Below are positions 6,842-54,584 of a DNA stretch of 64,000 nt, one piece after another. The notes under the pieces were generated by a model, which ran no database searches, had not been told where the DNA came from, and saw only the letters and a program-made list of their open reading frames with translations. Within the stretch, counting starts at the first letter, position 1. Every line of letters starts with the position of its first letter. The stretch covers positions 7,871-71,870 of the forward strand of contig CAZXHG010000011.1 in the NCBI GenBank assembly GCA_964639985.1, given 5' to 3'. The translations under genes were made by a program, and so were the position numbers. Origin of the DNA: an uncultured Rickettsiales bacterium (GTDB lineage Bacteria > Myxococcota_A > UBA796 > UBA9615 > CAYRNR01).

Positions 6842-6872
6842 GGCCTCTCTCCCGCGACGCACATTCTAGGCC

Positions 6873-38974: not shown

Positions 38975-40573
38975 CTACTCGAAATGGAACAGGTGGAAAG
39001 ACCAGCCGACCCGGCCTGCGACCTCGTGGCGGGCCAGCCAGTCGGTGGGTACGCCGTGCTGTTGCTCGTACAGCCTGCCGCGGATGAGCTCCTGGGTGCT
39101 CAGCGCGTACCAGCCCGGCGCCGGCTCGGCCGCGGCCCACGACCCGTCGGTCAGGGGCTCGTGGTCGATGCCGTAGTACGCGGGATCCGCGCTCACGACC
39201 CACGCGTAGCGCAGGTGCACGCGCCCGATGCCGCGGCGGTCGAGCTCGGCCTTCAGCCGCCGCAGGTCCTGACCCCAGTCGATGTTCGAGTCGTCGAGCA
39301 CGGCGTGGCCGTTGGCCGATCCACCGACCAGGTCGCTGAAGTACGACATCTGGTGGGGGTGCACCACGGCGGTGGACAGCACGGCCCGGGCCACCAGCAG
39401 GCCCAGCACGATCTTCATCACGTTGTTCGTCCACAGCGCCGGCGCCACGCGGCCCACGAACACGAACAGCAGCGGGTAGCACGGCAACAGGTAGCGCGCG
39501 CCGATGTTCGCGGCCAGGGTCGCGGTCACCACCGCGAACAGCAGCGGTGGCAGCACCAGCCACAGCTCCTCCATGTCGTCGTCGGTGCGCCTGTGACCGA
39601 ACAGGGCCAGCCCGCAGGCCGCACCCAGCAGCACCAGCACGGCCAGCCGGGTCTTGGCCAGGAAGGCCGCGGGGAAGTACCACCAGACCCCCCCCTGTTC
39701 GAAGCGGCCGAAGGCGTAGAAGTGGTAGTCGTCCGCGTGATCCGCGTTCACCCGCAGCAGGCCGTCGAGGTAGAAGCCCGCGTCCAGGGGGAAGCCGTAG
39801 CAGGCCCAGGCCACCAGCGCGCCAGTGGCGACCATGGCTGCGCCGATGGCCACGGTCTTGCCGAAACGGCGGCCGGGCGTGACCCCGGTGCCGCGGCGGC
39901 CCGAGCCGTCGAACGGCCGCAGCACCCACGTCAGCAGCAGCACGGCCATGACCGGCAGCAGGAACACCCCCGAGAACTTGGCGGCGAGGGTGCCGCCCAG
40001 CATCACGCCGGCCACGCCCAGCTGCGCGTAGGCGCCGCCGCGCAGGTAGGCGCGCAGGTGGAACAGGGTGGCGGTCCAGAACAGGGCCAGGCCCACGTCC
40101 ATGGTGACCAGGCCGGTATGACCCAGCACCAATGGGCAGGTGGCATACAGCAGCAGGGACAGGGCCGCGCCGCGGGTGCCCCACAGGGACCGGGACCACA
40201 GGTAGACGTAGATCCCGAGCACCAGGCCCAGCAGCACCATCGGCAACCGGCCCCACAGCAGCAGCAGGTCCGCGTCGTTGCCGTACAGGAAGCGGTGGCC
40301 GAAGCCCCACTCCTCCACCGGGTCGGAGGTCCAGCCCGGATCGTCCAGGTCGAGCTCGGGCTGCAGGCCCAGCAGCGGCAGGCCGGCCAGCAGCTTGATC
40401 AGCGGCGGGTGCTGCGGGTTGAGGCGGTAGTCGCCGGTGGCCAGGTAGGTGTAGCCCGCGGGCAGGTGGGTGACCTCGTCCGAGGTGGCGCTCGAACCCC
40501 AGGTGGCGGTCACGGCCAGGACCGCCATCAGCACCAGCCCGGCCGCGATCACGGCCAGGTCGAGGCGGGGCAT
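38975..40573 (-). CDS. glycosyltransferase family 39 (ArnT/PMT-like, phospholipid-carrier-dependent) membrane protein
   Basis: ~11 TM; N-terminal DE motif region (SDEVTHLPAG); ATG 40573 (MPRLDLAV). Confidence 0.8.
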   Translation of the reverse strand: MPRLDLAVIAAGLVLMAVLAVTATWGSSATSDEVTHLPAGYTYLATGDYRLNPQHPPLIKLLAGLPLLGLQPELDLDDPGWTSDPVEEWGFGHRFLYGNDADLLLLWGRLPMVLLGLVLGIYVYLWSRSLWGTRGAALSLLLYATCPLVLGHTGLVTMDVGLALFWTATLFHLRAYLRGGAYAQLGVAGVMLGGTLAAKFSGVFLLPVMAVLLLTWVLRPFDGSGRRGTGVTPGRRFGKTVAIGAAMVATGALVAWACYGFPLDAGFYLDGLLRVNADHADDYHFYAFGRFEQGGVWWYFPAAFLAKTRLAVLVLLGAACGLALFGHRRTDDDMEELWLVLPPLLFAVVTATLAANIGARYLLPCYPLLFVFVGRVAPALWTNNVMKIVLGLLVARAVLSTAVVHPHQMSYFSDLVGGSANGHAVLDDSNIDWGQDLRRLKAELDRRGIGRVHLRYAWVVSADPAYYGIDHEPLTDGSWAAAEPAPGWYALSTQELIRGRLYEQQHGVPTDWLARHEVAGRVGWSFHLFHFE

Positions 40574-40706
40574 GTTCGGGGCCTGGTCCGGGGGTGTGGG
40601 CACGGTCCGATCGTAGTACGGAGGGCCATGTTGCGGCGCAACAAATTCCCTTGATTTGTTGTGCGAACGCACATAGGGTGTGCGTGACGAGGCTGGAGGA
40701 AGGACC

Positions 40707-42239
40707 ATGATCCACGGCAACTGGCTGCAGCGCTGGGCCACCTACGAGCCGGACAAGGTGGCGCTTGTCGACATGGATGGTCGGCGATCGGTCACCTATT
40801 CCGAGTTGAACGAACGTGCCGATCGGGCGGCGAACATGTTGCGCGACCTGTACGGCCTGGGGTTCGGGGATCGGGTGGCCGTGCTGGGTGCCAACCGTTT
40901 TTCACAGGTCGACCTCTATTTCGCAGTTGCGAAGCTGGGGGCGGTCCTGGTGCCGGTCAACTGGCGGCTGACGGCGGACGAGGTGGCGTTCGTGCTGGAC
41001 GACGCCGATCCGGATCTGCTGGTGTATGGCGCGGACGTGGCCGATACCGTGGCCGGGCTGGACGGCGTGTGGGGCGGCGAGCTGCTGGCGTTCGATCCGG
41101 TCGAGGGGGAGGTCGGTTATGCGGAGCTGATCTCCGGGGCTTCCTCGCTCCCGGTGAGCACCGACGGCATCGAGGCGGAGACGCCAGCGATGTTGCTGTA
41201 CACGTCGGGGACCACGGGCCGGCCCAAGGGGGCGGTGCTGACCCACGGCACGATCACCTGGAACGCGATCAACACGTGTGCGGGGTGGGACATCCGCAAC
41301 GACGACGTGACCATCACGCACACGCCGTTCTTCCACACCGGCGGCTGGAACGTGCTGACCCTGCCGCTGCTGCACCGGGGCGGGACCGTGGTGCTGGCCG
41401 ACCGCTTCGACGCGGACGCGACGCTGGACGCCATCAGCCGCCACGGGGTGACCGTGCTGTTCGCCGTGCCGACCATGTTCCAGATGATGGTGGACAGCGA
41501 GCGCTTCGCCGGAGCCGACCTGTCGCCCGTGCGGTTCTTCATCAGCGGGGGCGCGGCCTGCCCGGTGCCGCTGATCGAGACGTGGCAGGCGCGGGGGGTG
41601 GTGTTCAAGCAGGGCTACGGGCTGACCGAGGTGGGGCCCAACTGCTTCGTGCTGCACGAGCGCGACGCGGTGCGCAAGGCTGGGTCGGTGGGGTTCCCCA
41701 CGCTGCACCTGGATACGCGGCTGGTGGACGGCGACGGGCGCGAGGTGGGGCCGGACGAGGTGGGCGAGCTGCAGCTGCGCGGGCCCACGGTGTGCGCCGG
41801 CTACTGGCGCAATCCCGAGGCCACGGCCGGGGCCCTGCAGGACGGCTGGTTCGCCACCGGCGACCTGTTCCGGCGGGACGCCGAGGGCTACCACTTCGTG
41901 GTCGGGCGGCTGAAGGAGATGTTCATCTCCGGCGGGGAGAACATCTATCCCGCGGAGGTGGAAAGGGTGCTATACGAGATTCCCGCCGTGGTCGAGGCTG
42001 CGGTGGTGCCGCAGCCGGACGAGCGGTGGGGTGAGGTGGGGCACGCGTTCGTGGCCCTGGGCCGGACCAACGGCTCGGGCGCGCCCGACCCCGACGACAT
42101 CCTGGCGTTCTGCCGGCAGCACCTGGCCCGCTACAAGGTGCCCAAGGCGCTGACGATCCTCGGCGAGCTGCCCAAGGGCTCGTCCGGCAAGATCCTCAAG
42201 CGTGAGCTGACCGAGCGCGCGGCCGGGGCGGTGCGATGA
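40707..42239 (+). CDS. AMP-dependent acyl-CoA synthetase/ligase
   Basis: AMP-binding motif LLYTSGTTGRPKG; GYGLTE; C-terminal conserved Lys; ATG after GGAGGA. Confidence 0.85.
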   Translation: MIHGNWLQRWATYEPDKVALVDMDGRRSVTYSELNERADRAANMLRDLYGLGFGDRVAVLGANRFSQVDLYFAVAKLGAVLVPVNWRLTADEVAFVLDDADPDLLVYGADVADTVAGLDGVWGGELLAFDPVEGEVGYAELISGASSLPVSTDGIEAETPAMLLYTSGTTGRPKGAVLTHGTITWNAINTCAGWDIRNDDVTITHTPFFHTGGWNVLTLPLLHRGGTVVLADRFDADATLDAISRHGVTVLFAVPTMFQMMVDSERFAGADLSPVRFFISGGAACPVPLIETWQARGVVFKQGYGLTEVGPNCFVLHERDAVRKAGSVGFPTLHLDTRLVDGDGREVGPDEVGELQLRGPTVCAGYWRNPEATAGALQDGWFATGDLFRRDAEGYHFVVGRLKEMFISGGENIYPAEVERVLYEIPAVVEAAVVPQPDERWGEVGHAFVALGRTNGSGAPDPDDILAFCRQHLARYKVPKALTILGELPKGSSGKILKRELTERAAGAVR

Positions 42240-43822
42240 GGAGCGAAGGCGTGGGAGACGATCCGAGCCGGAAGCTGGTCGACCTGTGGGCCGAGGCGGC
42301 TCGCGGCTACACCGACGCGGTGCAGTCGTTCTGGGAGCAGGCCGGGAAAGCGGCTGGCACCCCGTCCGACGACCCGATGGCGGCCTGGGAGCAGGCGGTT
42401 GAGCAGTGGCAGCACGGCATGAGCACGCTGACCTCGCTGCAGGCGTCGTTCCTGGAGCAGCTGCTGGCCGACGCCCCGGACACGGGCGAGGCGCGGGTGG
42501 ACGCCCAGACCTTCGGCCAGCTCGACCGGCTGGGCAAGGCCAACTGGGAGGAGGAGCTGCGGCTGCTGTCGCAGCTGCCGGCTGCGGCTGCGACCCGCGC
42601 CGAGGGCGTGGACTCGGCGCGGCTGGGGCGGCTGTTCGAGGGCATGTGGGCCGAGTACCTGCGCGACCTCGAGGCCATGCCCGACGGTGCCTTCCGCATG
42701 GACCTGCAGCCGCTGGCCGAGGCCTGGACGCGGGTGCTGACCGGCCAGGGGGACGACGAGGCGCACAAGGTGGTGGACCGGCTGGTGCAGGCCGCGGCGG
42801 TCAAGGCCCGCTACGGCAGCGAGTACTACGCCGATCCCGAGGACACGAAGGTGGGGTTGACCCCGCGCGAGTGCGTGCACGAGCAGGGACGGCTGAAGCT
42901 GTACCGCTACCTGCCCGCCGAGGGGGTGGAGCCCGCGGACGCGCCGCCGGTGCTGATCGTGTACTCGGTGATCAACAAGCCCTACATCCTCGACCTGCTG
43001 CCCGGGCTCAGCTTCATCGAGCACCTGCTGGGCCAGGGCCTGGACGTGTACCTCATCGACTGGGGCGAGGCCGAGCGCGGGGATCGGACCACCACGCTGG
43101 ACAGCTACATCGACCCGGGCATCGCCGGCTGCGTGCTCGCCATCCGGGAGCGTACCGGCGCCGAGCAGGTCTCCCTGTTCGGCCACTGCATCGGCGGCAA
43201 CCTGGCCCTGATGTACGCCGCGCAGCACCCGGCCGCCGTCGCCCGGCTGATCACCCTGACCACGCCGATCACGGCCGCCGAGGGCGGGGTGGTGGCCCTG
43301 TGGACCGACCGCGACGTGTTCCCCGTGGATGCGCTCGTCGACGCCTACGGCCACATGCCGGCCAAGCTGATCCGCTACACCTTCATGGCCATCAAGCCCT
43401 ACTACGAGGTCATGAAGTGGAAGATGTTCCTCGAGAACCTGGGCAACGACGCGGTCATGGACCTGTTCCTGCCCGTGGACCGCTGGGCCAACGAGAACGT
43501 GGACATCCCCGGCGAGGTGATGCGGAAGTTCGTCGTGGAGGTGTTCCACGACGATCGCTTCCGCGACGGCGAGACCCGGATCAACGGCCGCAAGGTCGAT
43601 CTGGGCGCGATCACCTGCCCGCTGCTGAACCTGGCGGCGACCAAGGACTGGATCGTGCCGTCCGCGTCCGCGTCCGTGCTCAACGACCTCGTGGGCAGCG
43701 AGGACAGCCGCTACGTGGAAATCGAGGGCGCGCACGTGAGCATCATGATCGACCCGCGCTCGCGGCCGGTTTGGACCACGATGAGCGACTTCCTCGCCGG
43801 CCGGGACGAGGACGGCGCGTGA
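42236..43822 (+). CDS. PHA-synthase-like (PhaC-like) alpha/beta hydrolase
   Basis: lipase box with Cys nucleophile LFGHCIGGN; 528 aa; ATGA overlap with the ligase. Confidence 0.7.
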   Translation: MRSEGVGDDPSRKLVDLWAEAARGYTDAVQSFWEQAGKAAGTPSDDPMAAWEQAVEQWQHGMSTLTSLQASFLEQLLADAPDTGEARVDAQTFGQLDRLGKANWEEELRLLSQLPAAAATRAEGVDSARLGRLFEGMWAEYLRDLEAMPDGAFRMDLQPLAEAWTRVLTGQGDDEAHKVVDRLVQAAAVKARYGSEYYADPEDTKVGLTPRECVHEQGRLKLYRYLPAEGVEPADAPPVLIVYSVINKPYILDLLPGLSFIEHLLGQGLDVYLIDWGEAERGDRTTTLDSYIDPGIAGCVLAIRERTGAEQVSLFGHCIGGNLALMYAAQHPAAVARLITLTTPITAAEGGVVALWTDRDVFPVDALVDAYGHMPAKLIRYTFMAIKPYYEVMKWKMFLENLGNDAVMDLFLPVDRWANENVDIPGEVMRKFVVEVFHDDRFRDGETRINGRKVDLGAITCPLLNLAATKDWIVPSASASVLNDLVGSEDSRYVEIEGAHVSIMIDPRSRPVWTTMSDFLAGRDEDGA

Positions 43823-44742
43823 GCCGGACCGCACTGGCGCTGCTCGCCTCGACCTCGCTCACCGTGGGGGCGGGCTGTGGTGCCAGCTTCTACGAGGATC
43901 CCGAGCCCGACGACCGCGTGCAGTGGGGACAGACCGACCTGCCCGCCGCGCCCTGCGTGGGCGACGGTGACGGCCTGATCACCATCGACGAGTTCATGGT
44001 CGACCCGGAGGTGGGCATCACCGCGTGGTACACGGCCAACCGCGGCGGCACCGAGGTGGTGCTGGACGAGCCGTCCGGGGTGGATGTGGACGGCGCGCTG
44101 ACCTGGGACCTGACCGGGGTCGATCCGGACCGCGACGAGCTGCTCGACATCGCGCCGACGTCTCTCGAAGGCCGCTGGTACGCGGACCTGTTCGGCGACG
44201 GGGCCGACACGTTCGACGCGTTGCTCGACGCCTCCAGCGGCATGATGGGCGTGTACCGGCTCGACGCCGACGCCGAAGCGCTGATGTTGCTGGGCATCGC
44301 CGCGCAGGACGAGGGGGACCACCTGGTCTACGACCCGCCCGTGCCGATGCTGACCTTCCCGCTGGCGGACGGCGACGCCTGGACCCCGGAGGACGCCGCG
44401 GCCGAGGGCGAGGTGGACGGCGATGTCTACCCGCAGGACCTGGGCGTGGACGGCGTGGTGAGCCTGGTGCACACGTACGACGTGGAGGTGGACGGCGAGG
44501 GCCTGCTGCTGACCCCCCTGGGCGACCTGCCCGTCCTGCGGGTGCGGGTGACCCACCGCCAGGAGGCGTACAACAGCATCGCCGGGCTGTTCGCCGCGGA
44601 CAGCTCGCGGGCGACCCTGTTCGTCAGCGAGTGCCTGGGAGTGGTCGGCCGGCTGCGCAGCGTGGCCGACGAGGTGGACGCGGACTTCGACGTGGCCACC
44701 GAGGTGCTGCGGCTGGGCTACGCCGAGGAGGTGGCGCCGTGA
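43819..44742 (+). CDS. lipoprotein, family A (paralog of 47256-48089)
   Basis: GTG start overlapping the previous stop; lipobox LTVGAGC; shares LVYDxPxxxxxFPxAxGDxW and ECxGxxGRxxS blocks with the paralog. Confidence 0.55.
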   Translation: MSRTALALLASTSLTVGAGCGASFYEDPEPDDRVQWGQTDLPAAPCVGDGDGLITIDEFMVDPEVGITAWYTANRGGTEVVLDEPSGVDVDGALTWDLTGVDPDRDELLDIAPTSLEGRWYADLFGDGADTFDALLDASSGMMGVYRLDADAEALMLLGIAAQDEGDHLVYDPPVPMLTFPLADGDAWTPEDAAAEGEVDGDVYPQDLGVDGVVSLVHTYDVEVDGEGLLLTPLGDLPVLRVRVTHRQEAYNSIAGLFAADSSRATLFVSECLGVVGRLRSVADEVDADFDVATEVLRLGYAEEVAP

Positions 44743-45659
44743 TGCCCCGGCCCTGCTCGCTGGTGCTGTGCCTGGGCCTGCTGGCGGCCAGCCAGGGGTG
44801 TGCGCTGAAGTACCAGTCCGGAGCCCTGGACTACCGCGACGAGCCCCTGGCTGTGGTCGAGCTGCAGGGCGCGGACATCCGCTACGACGACCAGGGGCCG
44901 CGGGACGCCGAGGCCGTGGTGCTGATCCACGGGTTCGGCTCGTCTCTGCACAGCTGGGACTTCCAGGTGCATGCCCTGGCCGAGCGCTTCCGGGTGGTGC
45001 GGCTGGACCTCGAGGGCTTCGGCCGGTCGAGCAAGTACGACGGCGGCTACGGCCCCGAGGACCAGGCCGCGGTCGTGCTGGCGCTGATGGACCACCTCGG
45101 CATCGAACGCGCCCACCTGGTGGCCCACTCCTACGGCAGCCTGGTCGCCCTGGTCCTGGCCCTGGACGAGCCCGAGCGGGTGGGCCGGATGGTGCTGACC
45201 GGCGCCTTCGTGTACCCCGAGCAGCTGCCGTGGTCGCTGAGGTCCGCGCGCACGCCGGGCATGGGCGAGCTGATCTTCGGGCTGTGGTACGTCGAGAACC
45301 TGGAGTGGCGGTTCGGGCTGTCGTTCCACGATCCGGACCGCTGGATCTCCGAGGAGATGCTGTGGCGGGCCCGCTACACCCTGTCGCAGGACGGCGCGCG
45401 GGCCGCGGCCCTGGCCACGGTGAGGGCCATGGACCTGGAGCAGTGGCAGCTCCGCTACGGCGAGGTCGAGGCGACGGCACTGCTGGTCAGTGGCCGTGAG
45501 GACGTGGTCGCCCGGCCCGCGTTCGGCGAGCGCCTCGCAGCCCAGTTGCCCGATGCCGAGCTGGTGGTGCTGCCGTACTGCGGGCACTTCCCCATGGTCG
45601 AGCACCATGGGCGGTTCAACGACCTGGTGCTGGCCCACCTGCGGGGAGGCGAGCGATGA
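44742..45659 (+). CDS. alpha/beta hydrolase-fold lipoprotein
   Basis: lipobox LAASQGC; HGFGSS and nucleophile elbow AHSYGS; catalytic His near C-terminus (CGHFPM). Confidence 0.7.
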   Translation: MPRPCSLVLCLGLLAASQGCALKYQSGALDYRDEPLAVVELQGADIRYDDQGPRDAEAVVLIHGFGSSLHSWDFQVHALAERFRVVRLDLEGFGRSSKYDGGYGPEDQAAVVLALMDHLGIERAHLVAHSYGSLVALVLALDEPERVGRMVLTGAFVYPEQLPWSLRSARTPGMGELIFGLWYVENLEWRFGLSFHDPDRWISEEMLWRARYTLSQDGARAAALATVRAMDLEQWQLRYGEVEATALLVSGREDVVARPAFGERLAAQLPDAELVVLPYCGHFPMVEHHGRFNDLVLAHLRGGER

Positions 45660-47245
45660 GCCGCCTCGCCCTGCTCCTGGCCGTCGCAATCGCCTTGCCC
45701 GCGCTCGCCGCGGAGCCACCCGCGCCGGTCGAACCCCCGGAGTGGATCTCCCTGGACGGATACCTGCGGACGCGTGGCGCGCTGTTCGTCAACCACGACC
45801 TGGACCGCGGATCGACCCACACCACGGGCGAACCGGTGTTCCCCATCCCGCCGTCCGGCGGGCAGATCCTCGGATCGGTGGATGCGCGCCTGCGCCTGGA
45901 CCTGGGCATCCACGTGGGGGACGTGGTGTGCGTGCACGCCCGCATCGACGCCCTGGACAACCTGGTGCTGGGCTCCACGCCCGAGGGGTTCCCCCGCACC
46001 CGCTGGGCGCCCATGGCCTGGGCCTCCACCGGTCAGGAGGCGCCCTCGGCCGGGACCAACAGCTTCAGCGACAGCGTCCGGGTAAAGCAGGCCTGGGGCG
46101 AGGTGTTCACCCCGATCGGGATCCTGGCCGTGGGCCGCATGGGCCTGCCCGCCTGGGGCCTGGGCGTGGTGGCGGCCGGGTCCGACGGGCTGGACGACGA
46201 CTACGACGACGACGTGGACCGCGTCGCCTTCGTGACCTCCTTCCGCGACCACTTCGTGGGCGCGTCGTTCGACCTCAACGCCATCGGCCCGACCACGGCC
46301 TCGACCAGTGGCGCCAGCACGCGGCGCGCCATCGACCTGGAGATGCGGGACAACGTGTACACGGTGTCGGTGGCCCTGGGCCGTAAGACCACCGACGAGG
46401 CGCTGGCGCGGCGTCGCGCCTGGGGCCGGCCGACCTTCGACTACGGCCTGTACGCCACCTATCGCTGGCAGCAGGCCGAGTTCCCTGCGTTCTACCTGTC
46501 CGGGCTCGACGGCGAGGACATGGACTGGGCCACGGACGACGCGCTGGCGCGGGACGTGCAGGCCCTGGCCCTGGACCTGTGGCTGCGTTTCGTCAGCGCG
46601 CGGGTGCGGGTGGAGTTCGAGGCCGCGTACCTGCGCGGCAGGGTGGGCAACTCGTCGCTGTACCCCGGCGTCGAGATGCCGCCGTTGACCTCCAACCAGG
46701 CGGGTGGCGCGCTGCAGGTCGAGGTGGTGGCCGTGCCCCGCAAGGTCGACGTGCAGCTCGAGCTGGGGCTGGCGTCCGGGGACGACGCCCCGGGCCTGGG
46801 CGTGGCCCCGCCCGTGGATCAGGCCACCTCTCATGCCGGTGACCTGGACGGCCCCCAGTTCCACATCGACGACGACCTGACGATGAACAACTTCCGGTTC
46901 CACCCCAACAAGGTGGTGGACGTGGTGTTCTGGCGGCAGATCGCAGGCACGGTCACGGACGCGTTCTACGCCCGGCCCGAGGTACGGCTGCACCCGAGCC
47001 CCTACTTCACCCTGGCGGTGGCCGGTATCCCGTCGTGGGCGGTCAGGGCGTCGTCCACGCCCAGCGGCACGCCCTTCTACGGCTTCGAGGTCGACCTGCA
47101 CGCCCGCTGGCACCCGGTGCCCGGGTTCGAGGTGCGGGCCGACCTCGGCGCGTTCTTCCCCGGCCGCGCGCTGGACAACCCCACCAAGGACCTGGTCGCG
47201 AAGCCGGCCCTGGGCGCCCACCTGATGGTGGCGTTCCCGTTCTGA
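45656..47245 (+). CDS. outer-membrane beta-barrel protein
   Basis: signal peptide AIALPALAA; alternating amphipathic strands; C-terminal aromatic (…MVAFPF). Confidence 0.65.
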   Translation: MSRLALLLAVAIALPALAAEPPAPVEPPEWISLDGYLRTRGALFVNHDLDRGSTHTTGEPVFPIPPSGGQILGSVDARLRLDLGIHVGDVVCVHARIDALDNLVLGSTPEGFPRTRWAPMAWASTGQEAPSAGTNSFSDSVRVKQAWGEVFTPIGILAVGRMGLPAWGLGVVAAGSDGLDDDYDDDVDRVAFVTSFRDHFVGASFDLNAIGPTTASTSGASTRRAIDLEMRDNVYTVSVALGRKTTDEALARRRAWGRPTFDYGLYATYRWQQAEFPAFYLSGLDGEDMDWATDDALARDVQALALDLWLRFVSARVRVEFEAAYLRGRVGNSSLYPGVEMPPLTSNQAGGALQVEVVAVPRKVDVQLELGLASGDDAPGLGVAPPVDQATSHAGDLDGPQFHIDDDLTMNNFRFHPNKVVDVVFWRQIAGTVTDAFYARPEVRLHPSPYFTLAVAGIPSWAVRASSTPSGTPFYGFEVDLHARWHPVPGFEVRADLGAFFPGRALDNPTKDLVAKPALGAHLMVAFPF

Positions 47246-47255
47246 GGAGACCCGG

Positions 47256-48089
47256 ATGAGGCGAGCGCTGGTGGTGATGGCGGCGGTGCTGGTCCAGGGC
47301 TGCGGTCCGTCCGTGCTCGCCGACGATCCGGGCTCGGCGCCGCTGCCCGAGTGCGCCGCCGAGCTCGACAGCACTATCACCCTCGACGAGCTGCCCCTGG
47401 CTCCGGGCATCGACGTGCGCTACACCCGCAACGGGGTGGGAGAGCCGGTGGACGTGGACCCGGACGGCGACGACCAGGGGGACGGCACCCGGCTGTGGGA
47501 CTTCTCCGGGGACGCCGGGGAGGTCGGCGCCACCTTGACGCTGCTCGATCCGACCGATGCGCCCCACGCGGAGCTCTTTGGGGACGCGACCTACGTGGCA
47601 CCACTGGCCCTGGAGACGCCGGACCTGCTCGGCTGGTTCCGCCTCGACGACCACGGCGACGGCAGCGGCGAGCTCGAGATGCTCGGCATGGCCACGGCCG
47701 ACGGCGTGGACCCGGCCAGCCGCACGCTGCTGGTGTACGACGAGCCCCTGGTGCTGTACCGCTTCCCCTTCGCCCTGGGCGACAGCTGGGAGCAGACCGT
47801 CACCTACCGCGACGCGGTGGCGTTCGGCATACGCGAGCAGGGCACGGAGCACTACCGCTTCGAGGTGGACGCGGTCGGCACCGTGCAGCTGCCCGGCCAC
47901 ATCGAGGTGTCGGATGCCCTACGCATCCGCGTGGACGTGGGCCAGACCCTGGCCATCGCCCAGGGCGAGCACACCCGCACCTTCCACCAGCTGCTGTGGG
48001 TGCGCCCCTGCTTCGGCGAGCTGGGGCGGATGGTGAGCACGGATCCGATGTTCGCCACGGTCGACGAGTTCCGCCGCTACTACCCCTGA
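47256..48089 (+). CDS. lipoprotein, family A paralog
   Basis: lipobox LVQGCG; paralogous to 43819-44742. Confidence 0.6.
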   Translation: MRRALVVMAAVLVQGCGPSVLADDPGSAPLPECAAELDSTITLDELPLAPGIDVRYTRNGVGEPVDVDPDGDDQGDGTRLWDFSGDAGEVGATLTLLDPTDAPHAELFGDATYVAPLALETPDLLGWFRLDDHGDGSGELEMLGMATADGVDPASRTLLVYDEPLVLYRFPFALGDSWEQTVTYRDAVAFGIREQGTEHYRFEVDAVGTVQLPGHIEVSDALRIRVDVGQTLAIAQGEHTRTFHQLLWVRPCFGELGRMVSTDPMFATVDEFRRYYP

Positions 48090-48135
48090 CTCCGGCGCCC
48101 GGCCGCGTGATAACGTGCCGGCTCGGAGGTCACCC

Positions 48136-48546
48136 ATGCGCTGTCCCGTCTGCGAGGCCGATACGCTGCACCCCCTGGAGCACGAGGGCGTGGAACTGGA
48201 CTTCTGCAGCGCGTGCAAGGGCACCTGGTTCGACCAGGGCGAGGTCGCGTTCTACGTGGAGACGGCCACGGACATGCCCGCGTTCAAGGACGTGGTCGGC
48301 ACGGCCCGGCCGACCGAGCGGCTGTGCCCCCACTGCCAGCGCGAGATGCTGGAGCTGAAGTACCGGCCCGAGGCCGGGCTGATGCTGGACGTGTGCGGCT
48401 CCTGCCGCGGCATCTGGCTGGACGCGGGCGAGCTGCGCTGGCTGGAGCAGCTGTCCACGGTGTTGCACGCGGACGGCAAGGTCATGCGCGCGGTCGGCGC
48501 GCTCGGAGCCAAGGGCTACGTGGTGCTGGGCGCCGGGGTCAAGTAG
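48136..48546 (+). CDS. TFIIB-type zinc-ribbon protein (2x CxxC...CxxC)
   Basis: CPVCEAD...CSACKG and CPHCQRE...CGSCRG with W...D spacing typical of zf-TFIIB. Confidence 0.6.
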   Translation: MRCPVCEADTLHPLEHEGVELDFCSACKGTWFDQGEVAFYVETATDMPAFKDVVGTARPTERLCPHCQREMLELKYRPEAGLMLDVCGSCRGIWLDAGELRWLEQLSTVLHADGKVMRAVGALGAKGYVVLGAGVK

Positions 48547-48550
48547 CCGC

Positions 48551-49651
48551 CTACAGGTACGACAGCCACCACCAGTGGCGCTTCGCCCGCTTGAGCCTGC
48601 GCCACCCGACGCAGGCCGGCCACAGCACGGCCAGCAGCCCCATCCACGCCAGGTAGATCAGCGGCAGGGACAGGTCCACGGTCGCGGGGATGGTGCTGTC
48701 GCCGTAGCGCAGCTGCGCGTGCACGATGCCGGCCGCGTGGATCAGCGGCAGGTGCATCAGGTAGAAGAACATCGGTACCCGGCCCCAGGCCAGCACCACG
48801 TCCGCGGTGGGGCCGCGCCAGCGGGCCAGCAGCGGCAGCGCGGCCACGGCGATGCCGAGGAACAGCAGCTGGAACATCAGCGACGGCGGGTACTTGCTGG
48901 GGTTGAGGAAGTGGGCGACCGTGGCCCAGTCCCCCCGCTCCTGCACCATCCACGCGCTGGGATCGCCGAACCCGTTGAGTGCACGCAGGCCGCCGAACAG
49001 CGCCAGCATCACCAGCCCGGCCAGCGGCAGCCAGCGCTGGCTGCGTTCGCCCACCAGCAGATCGGCTACCCCGTACCCGCAGGCCATCACCCCGAACCAC
49101 GGCAGGATGGCGTAGCTCAGGTGGAACTTGTGGCCCAACAGCTCGATGGTGTTGGGCTGGCACAGCACGCCGAGCACGGGCAGGTCGCCGGGCACGGGCA
49201 GCGCGGCGAACAGCAGCGTGAGGGTGAGTCCGAGCACCCCCACGGCCCGCGCGGGCAGCCACAGCACCGCGGCCAGCAGTACCATGGAGCCGCCGATGGC
49301 CCACAGCACGCCCAGGTGGGTGAAGTCGAGGTGGAAGTACCAGGCGAAGCTGACCCAGGTGCCCTCGAGCACCATCAGCCACAGACCGCGGGTCAGCAGG
49401 AAGCGCAGCGCGGGTCGGTCGGGCCGGTTCTGCCTGTACAGGGCCACGGCCACGCCCGCCAGGAAGATGAACCCCGGCGCGCAGAAGTGGCTGATCCAGC
49501 GGGTGACGAAGAACGCCACCGAGGTGGTGTCGAACGCCTCGGGGACCGAGCCCGCGGGTTGGAAGAAGTCGCGGGTGTGGTCCAGCGCCATGGCCGCCAC
49601 GATCAGGCCGCGCAGCAGGTCGATGGATGCGACTCGTCCAGGAGAGGTCAC
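48551..49651 (-). CDS. DUF1624/heparan-alpha-glucosaminide N-acetyltransferase-like membrane acyltransferase
   Basis: N-terminal R..SIDLLRG...ALDHTRDFF motif; ~10 TM. Confidence 0.7.
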   Translation of the reverse strand: MTSPGRVASIDLLRGLIVAAMALDHTRDFFQPAGSVPEAFDTTSVAFFVTRWISHFCAPGFIFLAGVAVALYRQNRPDRPALRFLLTRGLWLMVLEGTWVSFAWYFHLDFTHLGVLWAIGGSMVLLAAVLWLPARAVGVLGLTLTLLFAALPVPGDLPVLGVLCQPNTIELLGHKFHLSYAILPWFGVMACGYGVADLLVGERSQRWLPLAGLVMLALFGGLRALNGFGDPSAWMVQERGDWATVAHFLNPSKYPPSLMFQLLFLGIAVAALPLLARWRGPTADVVLAWGRVPMFFYLMHLPLIHAAGIVHAQLRYGDSTIPATVDLSLPLIYLAWMGLLAVLWPACVGWRRLKRAKRHWWWLSYL

Positions 49652-49720
49652 CGCGTGGCATACTACCGCGAGTTCCGGTGGGCTGCGCTGTTAAGATCGC
49701 GATCTCCTGTGGAGGTGCTC

Positions 49721-50701
49721 ATGGTTCCGGGTCGTTGGTGGCTGGTGGTCGTCGGGGCGTGGCTCGCCGCTCCCCTGTCGGCGGCGGTCGCGCAGGGGAC
49801 GGACGACGACGAGGCACCCGCCGAGCAGACCACGGCGGCCAGCAGCGAGGTGCCCGAGCATGGACAGCTAGGCGAGGGTGAGTTCGCCGGCCTGGTCTAC
49901 GACGCGGACCTGGAGATCTGGGTCCCGATCGAGGACGGCGTGGAGCCCCTGGCGCCCGAGCCGGTCGAGGAACCGGTCGTCGACGAGCCCACCGAGCCGC
50001 CTGCCGAGGACGTGGACCCGGAAGAGTCAGTGGAGAGCGTGGCGGACGACTCCGAGCCGCTGGTGGACGCCGCCCCTGCCGATTCCGGCGCCGAGGCCGA
50101 GGCGCCCGCGTACAGCCGGCGGGTGGGCCTGTGGATCGACCTGACCGTGGGGCTGAGCGCGCCCCGCCAGGTCAACGCGTACGTGGACGGGGCGCGGACC
50201 GTGTCGACCTACGCCGACGACCGCAAGCTGGGGGGCTACATCGGCGGCGGCATCGCCGCGCTGATCCCGGTGCGGTCGTGGCTGATCCTGCGGCCCAGCA
50301 TCGAGGGATACGTGGGCGCCAAGGGCTACACCGACCCGGCCGCAGTCGAGGGCACGGTGATCCTCAACGCCTTCGCCCCGGGCATCGCCGCGGACTTCGT
50401 GCTCAACCCCGGCGGCAAGGTGGTGCGCGGCTTCCTCAGCGCGGGCTTCGCCTTCGTCATCTCCGGGTTCGTGGGCGAGTCCGGCGACACCTTCCAGGGC
50501 ATCGGCCCCTCGGCCGAACTCGGCGGCGGCGTGCTGTGCTTCTGGGGCAGCCGCTTCAAGGTCGGCTTCCACGCGGGCATCTTCGGCCGCATCGCCCCCA
50601 CCGCGGTGGTCGCCTCGACCCACACCACGGCCCACCCGGCCGTGGAGGCCATCGACTTCAGCGGTGCGATGTTCAGGTTCGGGCCGGCGATCCGGTTCTG
50701 A
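49721..50701 (+). CDS. secreted/outer-membrane protein with acidic N-terminal region and C-terminal beta-barrel-like domain
   Basis: signal peptide; Asp/Glu-rich segment; ends FRFGPAIRF; ATG after GGAGGTG. Confidence 0.55.
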   Translation: MVPGRWWLVVVGAWLAAPLSAAVAQGTDDDEAPAEQTTAASSEVPEHGQLGEGEFAGLVYDADLEIWVPIEDGVEPLAPEPVEEPVVDEPTEPPAEDVDPEESVESVADDSEPLVDAAPADSGAEAEAPAYSRRVGLWIDLTVGLSAPRQVNAYVDGARTVSTYADDRKLGGYIGGGIAALIPVRSWLILRPSIEGYVGAKGYTDPAAVEGTVILNAFAPGIAADFVLNPGGKVVRGFLSAGFAFVISGFVGESGDTFQGIGPSAELGGGVLCFWGSRFKVGFHAGIFGRIAPTAVVASTHTTAHPAVEAIDFSGAMFRFGPAIRF

Positions 50702-50707
50702 GCCGCG

Positions 50708-51256
50708 TCAGCGCTTCTTCCCCAGCCGCTCCAGCAACGCATCCATGCGGCCGCGCAGGTCGTGCATGTCGTCCCCCTGACCCGGAGCGCCGCCGACCGC
50801 CGGCTGCTCGCCGCTGTCCGCGGCGGTCTCGTCGGCATCGACGGAAGGGTGCTCGCTGGGCGGCTCGGTGCGCTGGCCGGGCCAGCCGTCGAACATGGCG
50901 TCCACCTGCCGCTGGAACAGGCTGCCCGTGGCGTTGAACTGCTTCATCGCCATGCTCAGGAACGAGGCGAACGGGCCCTGCAGCATGGTGCCCTGCACCT
51001 TGATGATGTGGTGCAGCATCTCCACCGGGATCAGGTCGAGCCGGTCCTGCTCCTCGAGGATCACCTGGGTCAGCACCTGGCGGGTGAGGTCGGTGCCCTT
51101 GTTGGCGTCGACCACCTCCACCACCACGCCGTCGCGGATCATCTGGGCCAGGTCCTCGAGGGTGATGTAGCGGCTGCGGCGGGTGTCGTAGAGCCGGCGG
51201 TTGGCGTACTTCTTGATGGTCAGCGGCTCGCTGTTCGCGAATGCAACCGGGGACAT
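50708..51256 (-). CDS. phaR: polyhydroxyalkanoate synthesis repressor PhaR
   Basis: IKKYANRRLYDTRRSRYITLEDL N-terminal DNA-binding signature of PhaR; ATG after AAGGAG. Confidence 0.8.
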   Translation of the reverse strand: MSPVAFANSEPLTIKKYANRRLYDTRRSRYITLEDLAQMIRDGVVVEVVDANKGTDLTRQVLTQVILEEQDRLDLIPVEMLHHIIKVQGTMLQGPFASFLSMAMKQFNATGSLFQRQVDAMFDGWPGQRTEPPSEHPSVDADETAADSGEQPAVGGAPGQGDDMHDLRGRMDALLERLGKKR

Positions 51257-51422
51257 CACCGAGCTCCTTTTCGTGGTAGCGAACAAACTACCCCCGGGGT
51301 GGCGTCGAGGGCAACGTCTTTCTTGATGGTGCAGTGCAAAAAGTCGGTTGATCCGGGCGGGTGGAGGGGCTAGGATTCGAGGCGTACCTCATGTTGCAAC
51401 TGCGAAAAGACGGGAGAGCGGG

Positions 51423-51740
51423 ATGAGCGGATCGGATCGCAGCGGACCCTTCGGCTTCGGACCCCAGATGCTGGGGATGGGACAGGACGCGCTGGACGCG
51501 TGGTGGGCGCTGCTGCTGGAGAACCGCCAGCGCATGGAGCAGCTGGCCCGGTCGCTGCAGGACGCAGGCGGTGGTTCCGTGTCCCAGGACGACCTCTCCG
51601 CCGTGGTCGAGGCGCTGACCCTGGTCGAGAACCGGCTCGACGAGCTCGACGGGCAGGTGCGCACGCTGACCGCGGGCATGGCGCAGATCGTGGAGCTGCT
51701 CGAGCGCCTGGGTGGGGACCAGGACGGCGGCGATGACTGA
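51423..51740 (+). CDS. small coiled-coil protein, possibly phasin-like
   Basis: 105 aa; ATG after GGGAGAG; stop overlaps the next start; no recognisable domain. Confidence 0.4.
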   Translation: MSGSDRSGPFGFGPQMLGMGQDALDAWWALLLENRQRMEQLARSLQDAGGGSVSQDDLSAVVEALTLVENRLDELDGQVRTLTAGMAQIVELLERLGGDQDGGDD

Positions 51741-53544
51741 TCGGTCCCCGGCGCCCTGGGTGGTAGCGCTGACGATCCTGCTGCTCCCCGGCGCGGCGCG
51801 GAGCACGGACGCGTTCGATCCGACCGCGGTGGACGCCACCTGGGACGAGACCTCGACCGTGGCCCAGGACACCGACGGCCTGCCCCTGTGGGACCGGGTC
51901 GAGCGGCTGGTGGACGGGGACACGGTGCTGTTCCAGCAGGAGGACTTCCCGCCGGGGTGGGCGTGGGACGACGCGTCACCCGCATCGCCCCACGTGGCCA
52001 CCGCCTTCGGTACCGCCACCCCCCATTCGGGCACCTTCCTGCTGCACTTCGCGCCCGGCTGGGCGCTGGCCGACGAGCCCCGCCCGGTGCTGCTGATCCC
52101 GGGCGCGGGCGTCAGCGCCGGCGGGGTGATGGCGCCCCTGGCGCGGTTCCTGGCGGCCGAGGGGCGCTCGGTGTTCGCCATCACCTTCGCCCACCCCCAC
52201 GGCGACTGCTACCAGCAGGCCGAGCAGGTGGCCAACGCCGTGGCCCGCATCGCCGAGGTCACGGGCCGGGACACCGTGGATCTGGTCGGCCACAGCAAGG
52301 GGGCCATCGCCGCGGCCCTGTACGTGAGCAACCACGCGGGCGTGGACTGGGGCGCAGGCGATGACGAGCGCGGCCAGCGCTACACCCAGCGGGGCACGGC
52401 CTTCCGCGGCGACGTGCTGCGGTTCGTGGCCGCGGGTGCGCCCCTGGGCGGGGCGGACACCGCCTTCCGCTGGACCTCGGCGCACATGGCCACCGGCTGG
52501 GGCTCGGACCCGATCACGCCCAGCCCCTGGGCGTTCTTCTACCCGTACACGACCGGCAACCTGCTGGTGTACGAGGACCTGCGCGGGGTGGACCTGTGGC
52601 CGGACGAGGGCGACTCGTTCCCCGGCCAGGCGCAGCTGCTGGCCCCGTGGGACGACACCTACGACCTGCCCGGGTCGGATCCGGTGCTGGGGGTGTACGC
52701 GCTGCAGCAGGACTGGTTCACCACCTATCACGGGGGGTACGGCTTCTACAGTTTCTCGGCGGGCATCGACGACGCCATGGACGAGGCGGGCGGGCTGCTG
52801 GACAAGCTGCGCGGCGCGGGCGTGGACCCGGGCGTGGAGGTGGCGGCGCTCGCCGGGACCAACCCGCTCATCTGGCTCGACGGCCGCGAGGTGCTCGTGG
52901 ACGCGTTCGGCGAGTTCCTGGTGGACTTCCTGGGGCAGTCGTCGGCGTTCTACACCCAGTTCCTCGCCGATGTGATCGAGCCCCGCTTCCCCGGGTTCGA
53001 GCTGACCGACGACGAGCTGTTCGGGGTGACCCACGGCCACCTGGTGTTCGGCGAGATCTCCGGGCAGAGCGACGGCGTGCTGTTCACCGCGTCGGCCCTG
53101 GACACCGACGGCCTGCTGTCCCGCGGGGCGGTGCTGCTGGACGCGCACACCGCGGACCTGGCGCACATGGACCTGCTGTTCGCCGGCGACGAGATGGGCC
53201 AGTGGCTGATCGACGCGGGCAACGCCGATCCGGACGAGCAGGCCCACCTGCGGGCGCTGGGCGAGCGCTACCTGGCCGAGGACACCTTCTCCTGGGTCGA
53301 GGCCATGCTCGGTGACGACGACGACACGGCCGACGACGACGACAGCGCCGGCCCGGCCGACGACGACACGGCCGACGACGACACGGCCGACGACGACGAC
53401 AGCGCCCACGACGACACCCCGGCAGACGACGACGACCCGTGGGGCGATGGCTGTGAATGTGGTGTGGCCCACGGAGGCAGCCGGGCGGCCCTGCCCGCCC
53501 TGCTGCTGGTCGCGGCCGCGCTGCTGCGCCGGAGGAACGCATGA
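51733..53544 (+). CDS. secreted lipase/esterase-like alpha/beta hydrolase with poly-Asp linker and MYXO-CTERM-type tail
   Basis: signal peptide; GHSKG nucleophile elbow; D-rich tract; C-terminal GDGCECGVAHGG...LPALLLVAAALLRRRNA. Confidence 0.75.
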   Translation: MTDRSPAPWVVALTILLLPGAARSTDAFDPTAVDATWDETSTVAQDTDGLPLWDRVERLVDGDTVLFQQEDFPPGWAWDDASPASPHVATAFGTATPHSGTFLLHFAPGWALADEPRPVLLIPGAGVSAGGVMAPLARFLAAEGRSVFAITFAHPHGDCYQQAEQVANAVARIAEVTGRDTVDLVGHSKGAIAAALYVSNHAGVDWGAGDDERGQRYTQRGTAFRGDVLRFVAAGAPLGGADTAFRWTSAHMATGWGSDPITPSPWAFFYPYTTGNLLVYEDLRGVDLWPDEGDSFPGQAQLLAPWDDTYDLPGSDPVLGVYALQQDWFTTYHGGYGFYSFSAGIDDAMDEAGGLLDKLRGAGVDPGVEVAALAGTNPLIWLDGREVLVDAFGEFLVDFLGQSSAFYTQFLADVIEPRFPGFELTDDELFGVTHGHLVFGEISGQSDGVLFTASALDTDGLLSRGAVLLDAHTADLAHMDLLFAGDEMGQWLIDAGNADPDEQAHLRALGERYLAEDTFSWVEAMLGDDDDTADDDDSAGPADDDTADDDTADDDDSAHDDTPADDDDPWGDGCECGVAHGGSRAALPALLLVAAALLRRRNA

Positions 53545-54584
53545 CCGGATCGCTGACCGCGGTGAACGAGCTCGCCACACGACAGCGACGCTTCCTCGAC
53601 GCGACCGTGCTGCGGCACAACCCGGGACCCCGCTGGATCACCCCCAACGAGGTGGCGGTCGAGCAGTCCGCGTACCGGCTGCGGGTGTTTCGCGGCCCGG
53701 TGGACGGTCCCACCGTCCTGCTGGTCCCGCCCGAGGTCAACCGCGCCCACATCGTGGACTTCGCGCCCGGCCAGAGCCTGGTGCAGGCCGTGCTCGACGC
53801 GGGCTTCGGCCGCGTGGGCGTGGTGGAGTGGCGGGACGCCCGGCCGGACTCCAGGCGCGTGTGCGACCGGGACGTGGACGACTCCCTGGGCACGATCCTG
53901 GACTGCGCCGATCACCTCGGCGGGCCGGTCCACCTGGTGGGCCTGTGCCAGGGGGGGTGGGAGTCGGCCATGGTCGCCGCCCTGCACCCGGAGGTGGCGG
54001 CCTCCCTGACCCTGGTGGCCGCGCCCATCGACTTCCACGCCGGAGAGGGCGTGCTGAAGGACGTGGCCCGCAGCATGCCGATGACGACCTACGCCTCCCT
54101 GGTGGCGGCGGGTCGCGGCGCCATGCGGGGCGAGTTCATCTCCATGGGCTTCGACAACCTGCTGCCGCTGGAGCGCCACTGGCTGAAGTGGCTGCGGGTG
54201 TGGCGCGAGCTCGACGACGCCGAGGCCATGGAGCGCTTCCACCGGCTCGAGGACTGGTACCGCTGCCCCAAGGACCTGCCCGGCCCGATGTACCTGCGCG
54301 CCGTGCGCGAGCTGTTCAAGGAGAACCGCCTGGTGCAGGGGCGGTTCGTGGCGCTGGGGCGGACCGTGGACCTCGGTGCGATCACGTGCCCGCTGGCGCT
54401 GGTGATGGGTACGCGTGACCACATCACGCCGCCGGCGCAGACGCGCGCGGCAGCGGACCTGATGAGCTCCGAGCGGGTCCTGCGGACCGAGGTCCCGGCG
54501 GGGCACGTGGGCACGTTCATGGGGCAGCGGGCGCTGGAGGGGTACTGGCCTGATGTCCTACGGTGGTTGCTCGACCGATCCTGA
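53541..54584 (+). CDS. alpha/beta hydrolase with Cys lipase box, class III PhaC-like (tentative)
   Basis: VGLCQGGWES G-x-C-x-G box; 347 aa; start overlaps the lipase stop. Confidence 0.6.
   Translation: MTGSLTAVNELATRQRRFLDATVLRHNPGPRWITPNEVAVEQSAYRLRVFRGPVDGPTVLLVPPEVNRAHIVDFAPGQSLVQAVLDAGFGRVGVVEWRDARPDSRRVCDRDVDDSLGTILDCADHLGGPVHLVGLCQGGWESAMVAALHPEVAASLTLVAAPIDFHAGEGVLKDVARSMPMTTYASLVAAGRGAMRGEFISMGFDNLLPLERHWLKWLRVWRELDDAEAMERFHRLEDWYRCPKDLPGPMYLRAVRELFKENRLVQGRFVALGRTVDLGAITCPLALVMGTRDHITPPAQTRAAADLMSSERVLRTEVPAGHVGTFMGQRALEGYWPDVLRWLLDRS

Follow-up and report, generated by a model that had tools for sequence, protein, structure and literature searches.

An envelope module of barrel, esterase, and lipoproteins inside polyhydroxyalkanoate gene clusters of Myxococcota, and its possible part in polyester uptake

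Polyhydroxyalkanoate (PHA) metabolism is usually treated as cytoplasmic. In the PHA cycle of Pseudomonas putida (PhaC, PhaZ, FadD/ACS1), which is wholly cytoplasmic and whose acyl-CoA synthetase (ACS) gene lies outside the pha cluster, FadD re-activates free 3-hydroxy acids for the synthase PhaC (PMC8764540). Here, we analyzed a 64,000-nt stretch of DNA (the window; GenBank assembly GCA_964639985.1, contig CAZXHG010000011.1, positions 7,871 to 71,870) that carries at 40707-48089 a six-gene operon, g1 to g6, in which an AMP-forming ACS is likewise predicted to feed a PHA synthase. In this case, the two genes are adjacent and overlapping, and the pair is in operon with an outer-membrane/periplasmic module that encodes a lipoprotein, an alpha/beta-hydrolase lipoprotein, an outer-membrane beta-barrel, and a second lipoprotein. 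A PHA-linked hydrolase outside the cytoplasm is known from Rhodospirillum rubrum, whose periplasmic polyhydroxybutyrate (PHB) depolymerase PhaZ1 has an unclear role (PMC12983893) and, according to work cited there (Handrick et al. 2004), resembles extracellular PHB depolymerases in structure. The descriptions set the two apart, as the hydrolase of the present operon is MhpC/PcaD-like and PhaZ1 comes in them without reported barrel or lipoprotein partners.

The enzyme types of the operon are individually known. What is new is that pha clusters contain a conserved envelope module to which a predicted PhaR operator belongs, and this four-gene module appears to be built into them throughout Myxococcota; our search of the full-text literature returned no pha cluster with an outer-membrane and lipoprotein module described in this group. 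The gene content points to one operon of a predicted PhaR regulon, in which a channel, a tethered esterase, and lipoproteins are tied to a ligase and a dedicated synthase. Tentatively, and with somewhat less than even confidence, we read this operon as serving the PhaR-controlled uptake and salvage of exogenous hydroxyalkanoate esters or oligomers into storage PHA.

A six-gene operon conserved among Myxococcota

The six open reading frames (ORFs) all lie on the + strand and have the codon pattern of real genes (GC content of 0.92-0.96 at third and 0.44-0.50 at second codon positions, in a 70% GC genome). A preliminary, sequence-only reading of this DNA had proposed that they are tied together by stop/start overlaps at 42236, 43819, 44739-44742, and 45656, and the junctions bear this out. 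Indeed, g1 and g2 share ATGA (42236-42239, a 4-nt overlap), g2 and g3 share GTGA (43819-43822, again 4 nt), and g4 and g5 share ATGA (45656-45659), while at g3/g4 the stop TGA (44740-44742) and the start ATG at 44742 form TGATG, a 1-nt overlap that an alternative GTG start at 44739 would extend to 4 nt. The gap announced before the last gene does exist, with a GGAGA Shine-Dalgarno-like sequence inside, but spans 10 nt (47246-47255) and not 11. The public gene call on the identical Joint Genome Institute (JGI) metagenome contig contains the same six genes, with the g4 start at ATG 44742, and all six gene identities given by the sequence-only reading hold in profile, sequence, and structure-model searches.

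To follow the operon across genomes, we aligned 20 homologues of the barrel, used the alignment to collect 80 loci from GTDB species genomes, 41 of which are fully flanked, and mapped the window proteins onto these loci by tblastn. All 80 loci belong to Myxococcota-like metagenome-assembled genomes (MAGs), assigned to Polyangiaceae, Sandaracinaceae, Kofleriaceae, Haliangiales, Labilithrix, Archangium, and Bradymonadales. The order lipoprotein-hydrolase-barrel-lipoprotein is essentially invariant among them, the hydrolase lying immediately upstream of the barrel in 68/68 loci, a lipoprotein of the g3/g6 type upstream of the hydrolase in 68/68, and another downstream of the barrel in 74/75. As for the cytoplasmic half, 34 of the 41 fully flanked loci have the ACS and PhaC genes as a pair adjacent to the module and 5 have PhaC alone; 31 have phaR in their flank, 24 have it diverging from the module, and at least one pha-type gene occurs within 10 kb in 40. 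The genes are therefore co-conserved as a unit, the lack of which the sequence-only reading had named as a refutation, and a chance adjacency is excluded because 80 independent Myxococcota loci show the genes together. Clustering of the ORFs of these loci returned as the conserved set the lipoproteins, ACS, PhaC, barrel, PhaR, hydrolase, a small ORF, a FabG/PhaB-like reductase, and a phasin-like ORF.

Within the fully flanked loci, the ACS and PhaC pair is found on either side of the module. The common order has phaR diverging from lipoprotein-hydrolase-barrel-lipoprotein, followed by an ORF of ~100 aa, ACS, and PhaC, and about 20 or more of the loci with this order have, beyond phaR, a second phaC, a small phasin-like ORF, and a FabG/PhaB-like reductase that scores below the PhaB cut-off. 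The window has the order ACS-PhaC-module, and in a third order, seen in loci L014, L015, and probably L013, a sodium/solute symporter (SSF) takes the place of the ACS (SSF-PhaC-module). The ACS of the common order is of another type, FadD11-like with AMP-binding_C_3 and only 25-30% identical to g1, so that the pairing of ligase and synthase looks to have been kept through a likely non-orthologous replacement of the ACS. That the ACS types differ suggests that the activity has been selected for, and not that a single gene has been inherited. With regard to the ~100-aa ORF of the common order (MIWDMWKKGF...GLPTRRDQERxLHKLNQLESRLxDLEE), which occupies the interval between lipoprotein and ACS in L019-L086 (e.g., L006, 12449-12763), it matches the C-terminus of PhaE weakly (E 4.7e-4) and may be a miniature PhaE-like partner of the cluster synthase.

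The first gene of the operon, g1 (40707..42239, + strand; 510 aa), encodes a predicted cytoplasmic AMP-forming ACS with an AMP-binding domain (PF00501, 310 bits) and an AMP-binding_C domain (PF13193, 66 bits). It aligns over its full length to FadD13 and 8weu, the nearest solved structures being 8weu/8wev and FadD13, and its closest NCBIfam models are medium-/long-chain fatty-acid-CoA ligases. None of the substrate-defined NCBIfam equivalogs or subfamilies was passed, the best being PRK06839 (475 vs 748) and PRK06187 (457 vs 476). Neither g1 nor g2 has a hydrophobic segment (no 19-residue window reaches a Kyte-Doolittle mean of 1.6), from which both are predicted to be soluble.

The closest described relative of g2 (42236..43822, + strand; 528 aa) is the class III PhaC of the PhaEC type (Allochromatium vinosum), whose model TIGR01836 is the best NCBIfam match (276 bits). 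With this class and with the solved class I domains (5xav, 5hz2, 5t6o, 9knj), g2 shares the alpha/beta-hydrolase fold, the G-x-C-x-G-G elbow, and a Cys-Asp-His triad in register. Its catalytic domain spans about residues 190-528, with Cys318 (in GHCIGG), Asp471, and His500, and its C-terminal 320 residues align to 5xav, 9knj, and 5hz2; in this alignment, GHCIGG falls on the GFCVGG and GYCIGG of solved PhaCs, and Asp471 and His500 fall on the PhaC Asp and His. The three residues are invariant in 71/71 same-strand, cluster-linked g2 homologues. The Cys nucleophile that the sequence-only reading had proposed for this PhaC-like enzyme thus stands at the nucleophile elbow on the alignment, and not off it. 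These comparisons identify g2 as a genuine Cys-type PHA synthase, with polymerization as its predicted activity. Nevertheless, g2 differs from class III PhaC in that it scores below the cut-offs of all PhaC classes (class III, 276/365.3 bits; class I, 125/623; class II, 64/855), carries an N-terminal extension of ~190 aa, lies in a window without PhaE, and is coupled to exported proteins; by these scores it is a divergent subfamily that is a curated member of no PhaC class.

The extension of g2 is helical, Trp-rich, and of different length among relatives, and no family is recognizable for it in profile searches. We considered a fused PhaE or phasin and rejected it, the Phasin_2 match being sub-threshold (E 0.006) and hhalign against the mini-PhaE-like ORF giving a probability of 0.1%. 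The PhaE partner model PHA_synth_III_E matched none of the scanned window proteins, and a hidden Markov model of the conserved ~100-aa ORF, searched in the window, had no match either, when relatives of the window carry that weakly PhaE-like ORF instead of a PhaE.

The envelope half begins with g3 (43819..44742, + strand; 307 aa) and ends with g6 (47256..48089, + strand; 277 aa), which the sequence-only reading had called paralogous lipoproteins and which BLASTP indeed relates to each other (E 5e-13, 31% identity). The lipobox regions of g3, g4, and g6 read VGAGC, SQGC, and VQGC; in the g3/g6 family alignment the lipobox Cys is nearly invariant and two further Cys are invariant, and the lipobox Cys of g4 is kept in 71/72 homologues. 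On this basis, all three are lipoproteins by their motifs, with acylation predicted, and g3-g6 as a whole are predicted to be exported and to reside in the envelope. The g3/g6 family is large (391 representative clusters at E<=1e-30, 1963 at E<=1e-3), no Pfam or NCBIfam model matched it, and we found no paper on it in the full-text literature. Structure prediction, which the sequence-only reading had suggested for these lipoproteins, succeeded in that g6 gave a confident, all-beta AlphaFold2 model (pLDDT 88, pTM 0.84), but its structural matches are weak. The best are YmcC-like lipoproteins (Foldseek probability 0.89-0.96, template modeling [TM] score 0.26-0.46), and other weak ones include the lipid-binding lipoproteins LprG and LmcA. 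The YmcC-fold proteins (Escherichia coli YmcC 2in5; Bacteroides 3fzx and 4fvs) are the only matches of the g6 model with appreciable Foldseek probability and are all lipoproteins; they differ from g3/g6 in showing no sequence similarity at these low TM scores and in being smaller (~190-215 vs 277-307 aa). The YmcC-related lipoproteins GfcB and YjbF are encoded with an outer-membrane barrel. The g3/g6 domain also occurs as two or three tandem copies per protein (P0170-P0173) and as three consecutive genes in L033 (6577-8961), and some multi-copy proteins have sub-threshold DUF7107 matches near the N-terminus.

The hydrolase g4 (44742..45659, + strand; 305 aa) matches Abhydrolase_1 (110 bits) and Abhydrolase_6 (89 bits), has its Ser in AHSYGS, and is PcaD/BphD/MhpC-like in NCBIfam and PDB sequence searches. 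Database protein P0033 is a fusion of lipobox, hydrolase, Pro-rich linker, and barrel, the barrel part lacking a signal peptide of its own, and because it joins the hydrolase to the barrel, the esterase would be placed at the periplasmic end of the channel. Like P0033 in length and domain list, P0031 and P0034 (~830 aa) are apparent hydrolase-barrel fusions; P0116 was discarded as a further case, its internal signal peptide making it probably a gene-call artefact.

The barrel g5 (45656..47245, + strand; 529 aa) passes the curated cut-off of TIGR04551 (352.2 vs 300 bits, over 497/519 profile positions), an uncharacterized family of Myxococcota that no paper mentions in our full-text literature search. 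It has a signal peptide (MSRLALLLAVAIALPALA), ends in Phe (...AFPF), and gives an 18-strand AlphaFold2 model (pTM 0.75), with which Foldseek finds AlgE first (E 4e-15, TM 0.5-0.64), then Campylobacter MOMP, E. coli ChiP, Occ/OprD channels, and general porins. To ChiP, Occ/OprD, and the sucrose porin, g5 can be likened by the 18-strand model, these structural matches, and a periplasmic hydrolase encoded alongside. It differs from ChiP/OprD-type channels in having no detectable sequence homology to them, in a hydrolase that is a lipoprotein and can be fused to the barrel, and in two dedicated lipoproteins.

Predicted PhaR operators and the PHA genes downstream of the operon

About 3 kb downstream of the operon and on the opposite strand lies phaR (50708..51286, - strand), which encodes a PHA-responsive repressor (PF07879, 95 bits; TIGR01848, 109.0 bits, just under the 109.45 cut-off). 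For alpha-proteobacteria, the PhaR site has been published as a YGCRNYGCR core flanked by AT-rich arms (PMC12542648). Upstream of the g1 start ATG (40707), which is preceded by GGAGGAAGG, we predict a PhaR operator, CCATGTTGCGGCGCAACAAAT (40626..40646, no strand assigned), 61 nt from the start codon, whose core TGCGGCGCA fits YGCRNYGCR. A second predicted operator, TGATGGTGCAGTGCAAAAAGT (51324..51344, again without strand), lies in the intergenic region between phaR and a phasin-like gene. The core occurs 55 times in the window, 3 times with AT-rich flanks, and these 3 include both sites. In related loci it is present in 42 of 43 intergenic regions between phaR and the module, with a density of 5.6 per kb where the background has 1.7 per kb.

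A 21-nt operator position weight matrix (PWM), trained on other genomes only and scanned over the full 64 kb, gave only two scores of at least 20, namely 25.0 for the site upstream of g1 and 24.8 for the one at phaR, when the next best was 15.2; of 200 first-order Markov simulations, 0 reached 24.8. In L007, L008, and L010, which have the gene order of the window, one site likewise lies just upstream of the ACS gene and one at phaR, and in L014 and L015 predicted PhaR sites precede the SSF gene. Because such sites recur upstream of g1 or SSF in relatives, the predicted operator travels with the operon and not with phaR alone, and phaR is the likely regulator of the operon. A shared 8-mer noticed by eye between the two operator regions was insignificant alone and has been superseded by this cross-genome test.

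Around the operator upstream of g1, an AT-rich run of palindromes extends over 40629-40685. It comprises GCGCAACAAAT/ATTTGTTGTGC, separated by a 7-nt spacer, and TGTGCG-AA-CGCACA, which resembles the PhaR core with one extra central base; these extra palindromes may be a second operator or the site of another regulator. The third AT-flanked core of the window, CGCGACGCA at 6853, between the genes for an FHA-domain histidine kinase and a pyridoxal-dependent decarboxylase, scores below 14 with the PWM and is probably a chance match.

Diverging from phaR, a second putative PhaR-controlled unit (51468..54584) encodes on the + strand a phasin-like ORF of 90 aa (51468-51740, from the gene call), a secreted lipase-like protein of ~594 aa with a GHSKG motif (51760-53544), and a PhaC/PhaZ-like protein of 347 aa with a GLCQGG Cys box (53541-54584). 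The lipase-like protein has weak class-2 lipase matches and a MYXO-CTERM-like tail, GCECG...LLLVAAALLRRR, and is probably surface-tethered. The 347-aa protein matches PHB_depo_C, DUF3141, and TIGR01836 and may be a depolymerase as well as a synthase. In L008-L010, phaR is followed by the same genes, and L007 shows phaR with the first two of them up to the end of the locus. The 90/130-aa ORF after phaR was considered as a counterpart of the mini-PhaE-like ORF, and the comparison gave only a 32-column coiled-coil match (hhalign E 0.002, probability 13%). With phaR and these phasin-like and PhaZ/PhaC-like genes 3-6 kb downstream and a predicted operator at hand, the link of the operon to polyester is stronger than the sequence-only reading had made it.

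Direction of traffic across the envelope

Apart from the conserved set, the only recurrent genes of the 80 loci are transporter genes, found in cis at 19 loci and belonging to three unrelated families. A group of the major facilitator superfamily (MFS) nearest to D-galactonate/aromatic-acid carriers occurs in five loci, directly upstream of the module, on the same strand, and apparently as the first gene; another MFS group, nearest to sialate/aromatic-acid:H+ symporters, occurs in eight, and SSF symporters occur in six. One database protein is moreover called as an MFS-lipoprotein fusion. By family, all three are importer-type organic-anion carriers. The ORF clustering returned no exporter co-conserved across the 80 loci, and no alginate or other exopolysaccharide gene family, the neighbors being pha genes, ACS, and symporters; an inner-membrane synthase or translocon of the synthase-dependent secretion type is found neither in the operon nor among the co-conserved genes, and none of the six operon proteins has an inner-membrane segment. 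A MacB-type ATP-binding cassette (ABC) pump with its membrane fusion protein (MFP), which adjoins the cluster in L006, was considered as an exporter and set aside, as it is not conserved in the other loci. The sequence-only reading had the product handed outward, as an export or surface polyester pathway, and this part of it was not upheld, given the lack of an inner-membrane operon protein and of a co-conserved exporter and the importer-family membership of the recurrent membrane genes.

Uptake is favored because the symporters in cis are importer-type, because an SSF symporter replaces the ACS in the third gene order, and because no exporter is co-conserved. Under this reading, in which the substrate, its direction, what the lipoproteins do, and the binding of PhaR are inferred, hydroxyalkanoate esters or oligomers from outside (for example, PHA from lysed prey or detritus) would pass the outer membrane through the 18-strand channel of g5, and, where the channel opens into the periplasm, the Ser esterase g4 on its lipid anchor would cut the esters to free hydroxy acids, with the outer-membrane lipoproteins g3 and g6 as putative binding or assembly partners. 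An organic-anion symporter, encoded in cis in some relatives and supposedly elsewhere in the present genome, would carry the acids over the inner membrane, where g1 would make hydroxyacyl-CoA from them and g2 would polymerize it into storage PHA. The presence of polymer would then titrate PhaR and relieve repression, amounting to a feed-forward induction. Consistent with such a role, the barrel is 18-stranded and monomer-like, with the uptake channels ChiP and Occ/OprD among its structural matches besides AlgE, and a secreted lipase-like protein is encoded in the neighboring unit, beside the second predicted PhaR site.

If uptake were true, predators would bank surrounding polyester as their own storage polymer by means of a dedicated synthase, which would open a new path for carbon in soils, sediments, and wastewater sludge, and the channel, esterase, ligase, and synthase would offer parts for recycling PHA plastics into new PHA. 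Whichever the direction, the operon places TIGR04551 and a lipoprotein family of ~400 to 2000 representative clusters in a functional context for the first time, has a bearing on the PHB depolymerase that sits unexplained in the periplasm of Rhodospirillum, and names concrete, testable genes in genera with cultured members.

Several observations nonetheless weigh against uptake and salvage. The resemblance of both ACS types is to medium-/long-chain fatty-acid ligases and not to ligases known for short-chain hydroxy acids, g4 belongs to a generic MhpC/PcaD type that nothing ties specifically to hydrolases of PHB oligomers, and the cluster yielded no canonical extracellular PHB depolymerase. Among structural matches to the barrel, an exporter, AlgE, ranks first, and the YmcC fold is all that structure comparison suggests for the lipoproteins, when lipoproteins of the YmcC/GfcB/YjbF type are found in operons for polysaccharide export. 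Only 19 loci have symporters in cis, and this window has none. Nor does the reading explain what need there would be of a second, dedicated synthase for monomers that are imported. Finally, the operator of the common order lies in a region shared with phaR and might do no more than let phaR regulate itself; that the operon is controlled is supported independently by the loci of the window type.

An unlikely alternative is that the two halves are co-regulated yet mechanistically separate, the envelope genes performing some outer-membrane task of the PHA-accumulating state, such as a porin switch or remodeling, and sharing only the PhaR regulon. PhaR regulons elsewhere do reach beyond PHA genes, to exopolysaccharide and transport among others (PMC12542648), and what links the envelope to the cytoplasmic half is gene context. 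However, the adjacency of the module to ACS and PhaC survives at least three gene orders and the likely non-orthologous replacement of the ACS, translational coupling spans the cytoplasmic/envelope boundary at g2/g3, and the recurrence of a pha-type gene near the module in all but one of the fully flanked loci would also have to be accounted for.

That the product of ACS and PhaC, be it an oligo- or polyhydroxyalkanoate or a transferred hydroxyacyl group, leaves through the AlgE-like barrel or inserts at it, with the lipoproteins as scaffold and the esterase trimming, appears improbable as well. It would fit the rank of AlgE as top structural match, the weak Alginate_exp match of the barrel, and the weak likeness of the lipoprotein model to YmcC. 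As a matter of fact, barrel, lipoprotein, and periplasmic polymer hydrolase form the hallmark layout of alginate, poly-N-acetylglucosamine (PNAG), Pel, and cellulose secretion, and it is in this layout and in the AlgE match that the operon can be likened to the AlgE/AlgK/AlgL type of exopolymer secretion. In addition, periplasmic PHB enzymes and membrane-associated low-molecular-weight PHB have been reported, without explanation, elsewhere (PMC12983893). Against this stand the absence of any inner-membrane component from the operon, whose g1 and g2 are predicted to be soluble, and the transporter survey above, with its importer-type symporters and no co-conserved exporter. Unlike AlgE systems, the operon lacks a tetratricopeptide repeat (TPR) scaffold, an inner-membrane synthase or co-polymerase, and polysaccharide genes, and its neighbors are pha genes. 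Moreover, the barrel is no closer to AlgE than to other 18-strand channels (MOMP, ChiP), its Alginate_exp match (PF13372) covers a C-terminal fragment only and scores 15.5 bits against a gathering score of 25.2, and the YmcC likeness has the low TM scores given above. If export were true, this would be the first bacterial system for polyester secretion or outer-membrane insertion.

A dedicated polyester-to-envelope pathway, in which g2 would make short chains that, after an inner-membrane step, would be handled by the lipoproteins and the esterase and pass through the AlgE-like barrel or lodge at it, is in our view decidedly unlikely; if true, it would offer genetic access to the membrane-associated low-molecular-weight PHB that has long been debated and to the periplasmic PHB enzymes.

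Quite doubtful, lastly, is a scavenging of lipids that feeds PHA, in which prey acylglycerols or lysophospholipids would be de-esterified, their fatty acids activated by the FadD-like ACS, and beta-oxidation intermediates or hydroxy fatty acids stored by the synthase. In its favor, myxobacteria are predators, both ACS types are nearest to medium-/long-chain ligases, the weak fold matches of the lipoproteins include LprG and LmcA, and a secreted lipase-like protein is encoded beside phaR. Against it, the symporter families in cis carry small hydrophilic organic anions and are not long-chain fatty-acid carriers, there is no 14-strand barrel of the FadL type, no PhaJ (enoyl-CoA hydratase) or beta-oxidation gene is co-conserved in the 80 loci, and class-III-like synthases usually prefer short-chain substrates.

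Other features of the window

Scans for sigma-70 promoters and intrinsic terminators over 40400-48700 gave no match and are uninformative for myxobacterial sequence of 70% GC. Three kilobases upstream of the operon, a thiolase-like protein of the TLP1 type (TLP1_add_C; PRK08257-like "acetyl-CoA acetyltransferase") is encoded at 36359-37816 on the - strand, and a link of this protein to PHA is doubtful because tblastn found no match to it in the related loci. On the other side, a protein with two TFIIB-type zinc ribbons (48115-48546) begins 25 nt past g6 and had no tblastn match in the related loci L007-L086. It is followed at 49718-50701 by a secreted protein of 327 aa, without family, that has an acidic low-complexity middle and a beta-rich C-terminus.

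Other genes of the window mark its organism as one of the Myxococcota, one for a GltG-like protein with an AgmX/PglI tail and one for a protein with a MYXO-CTERM-like end. The nearest MAGs (L007-L010, L013, L014) have myxobacterial gene content and ~70% GC, and the public labels "uncultured Rickettsiales" and "Enterobacterales" are probably placeholders or errors.

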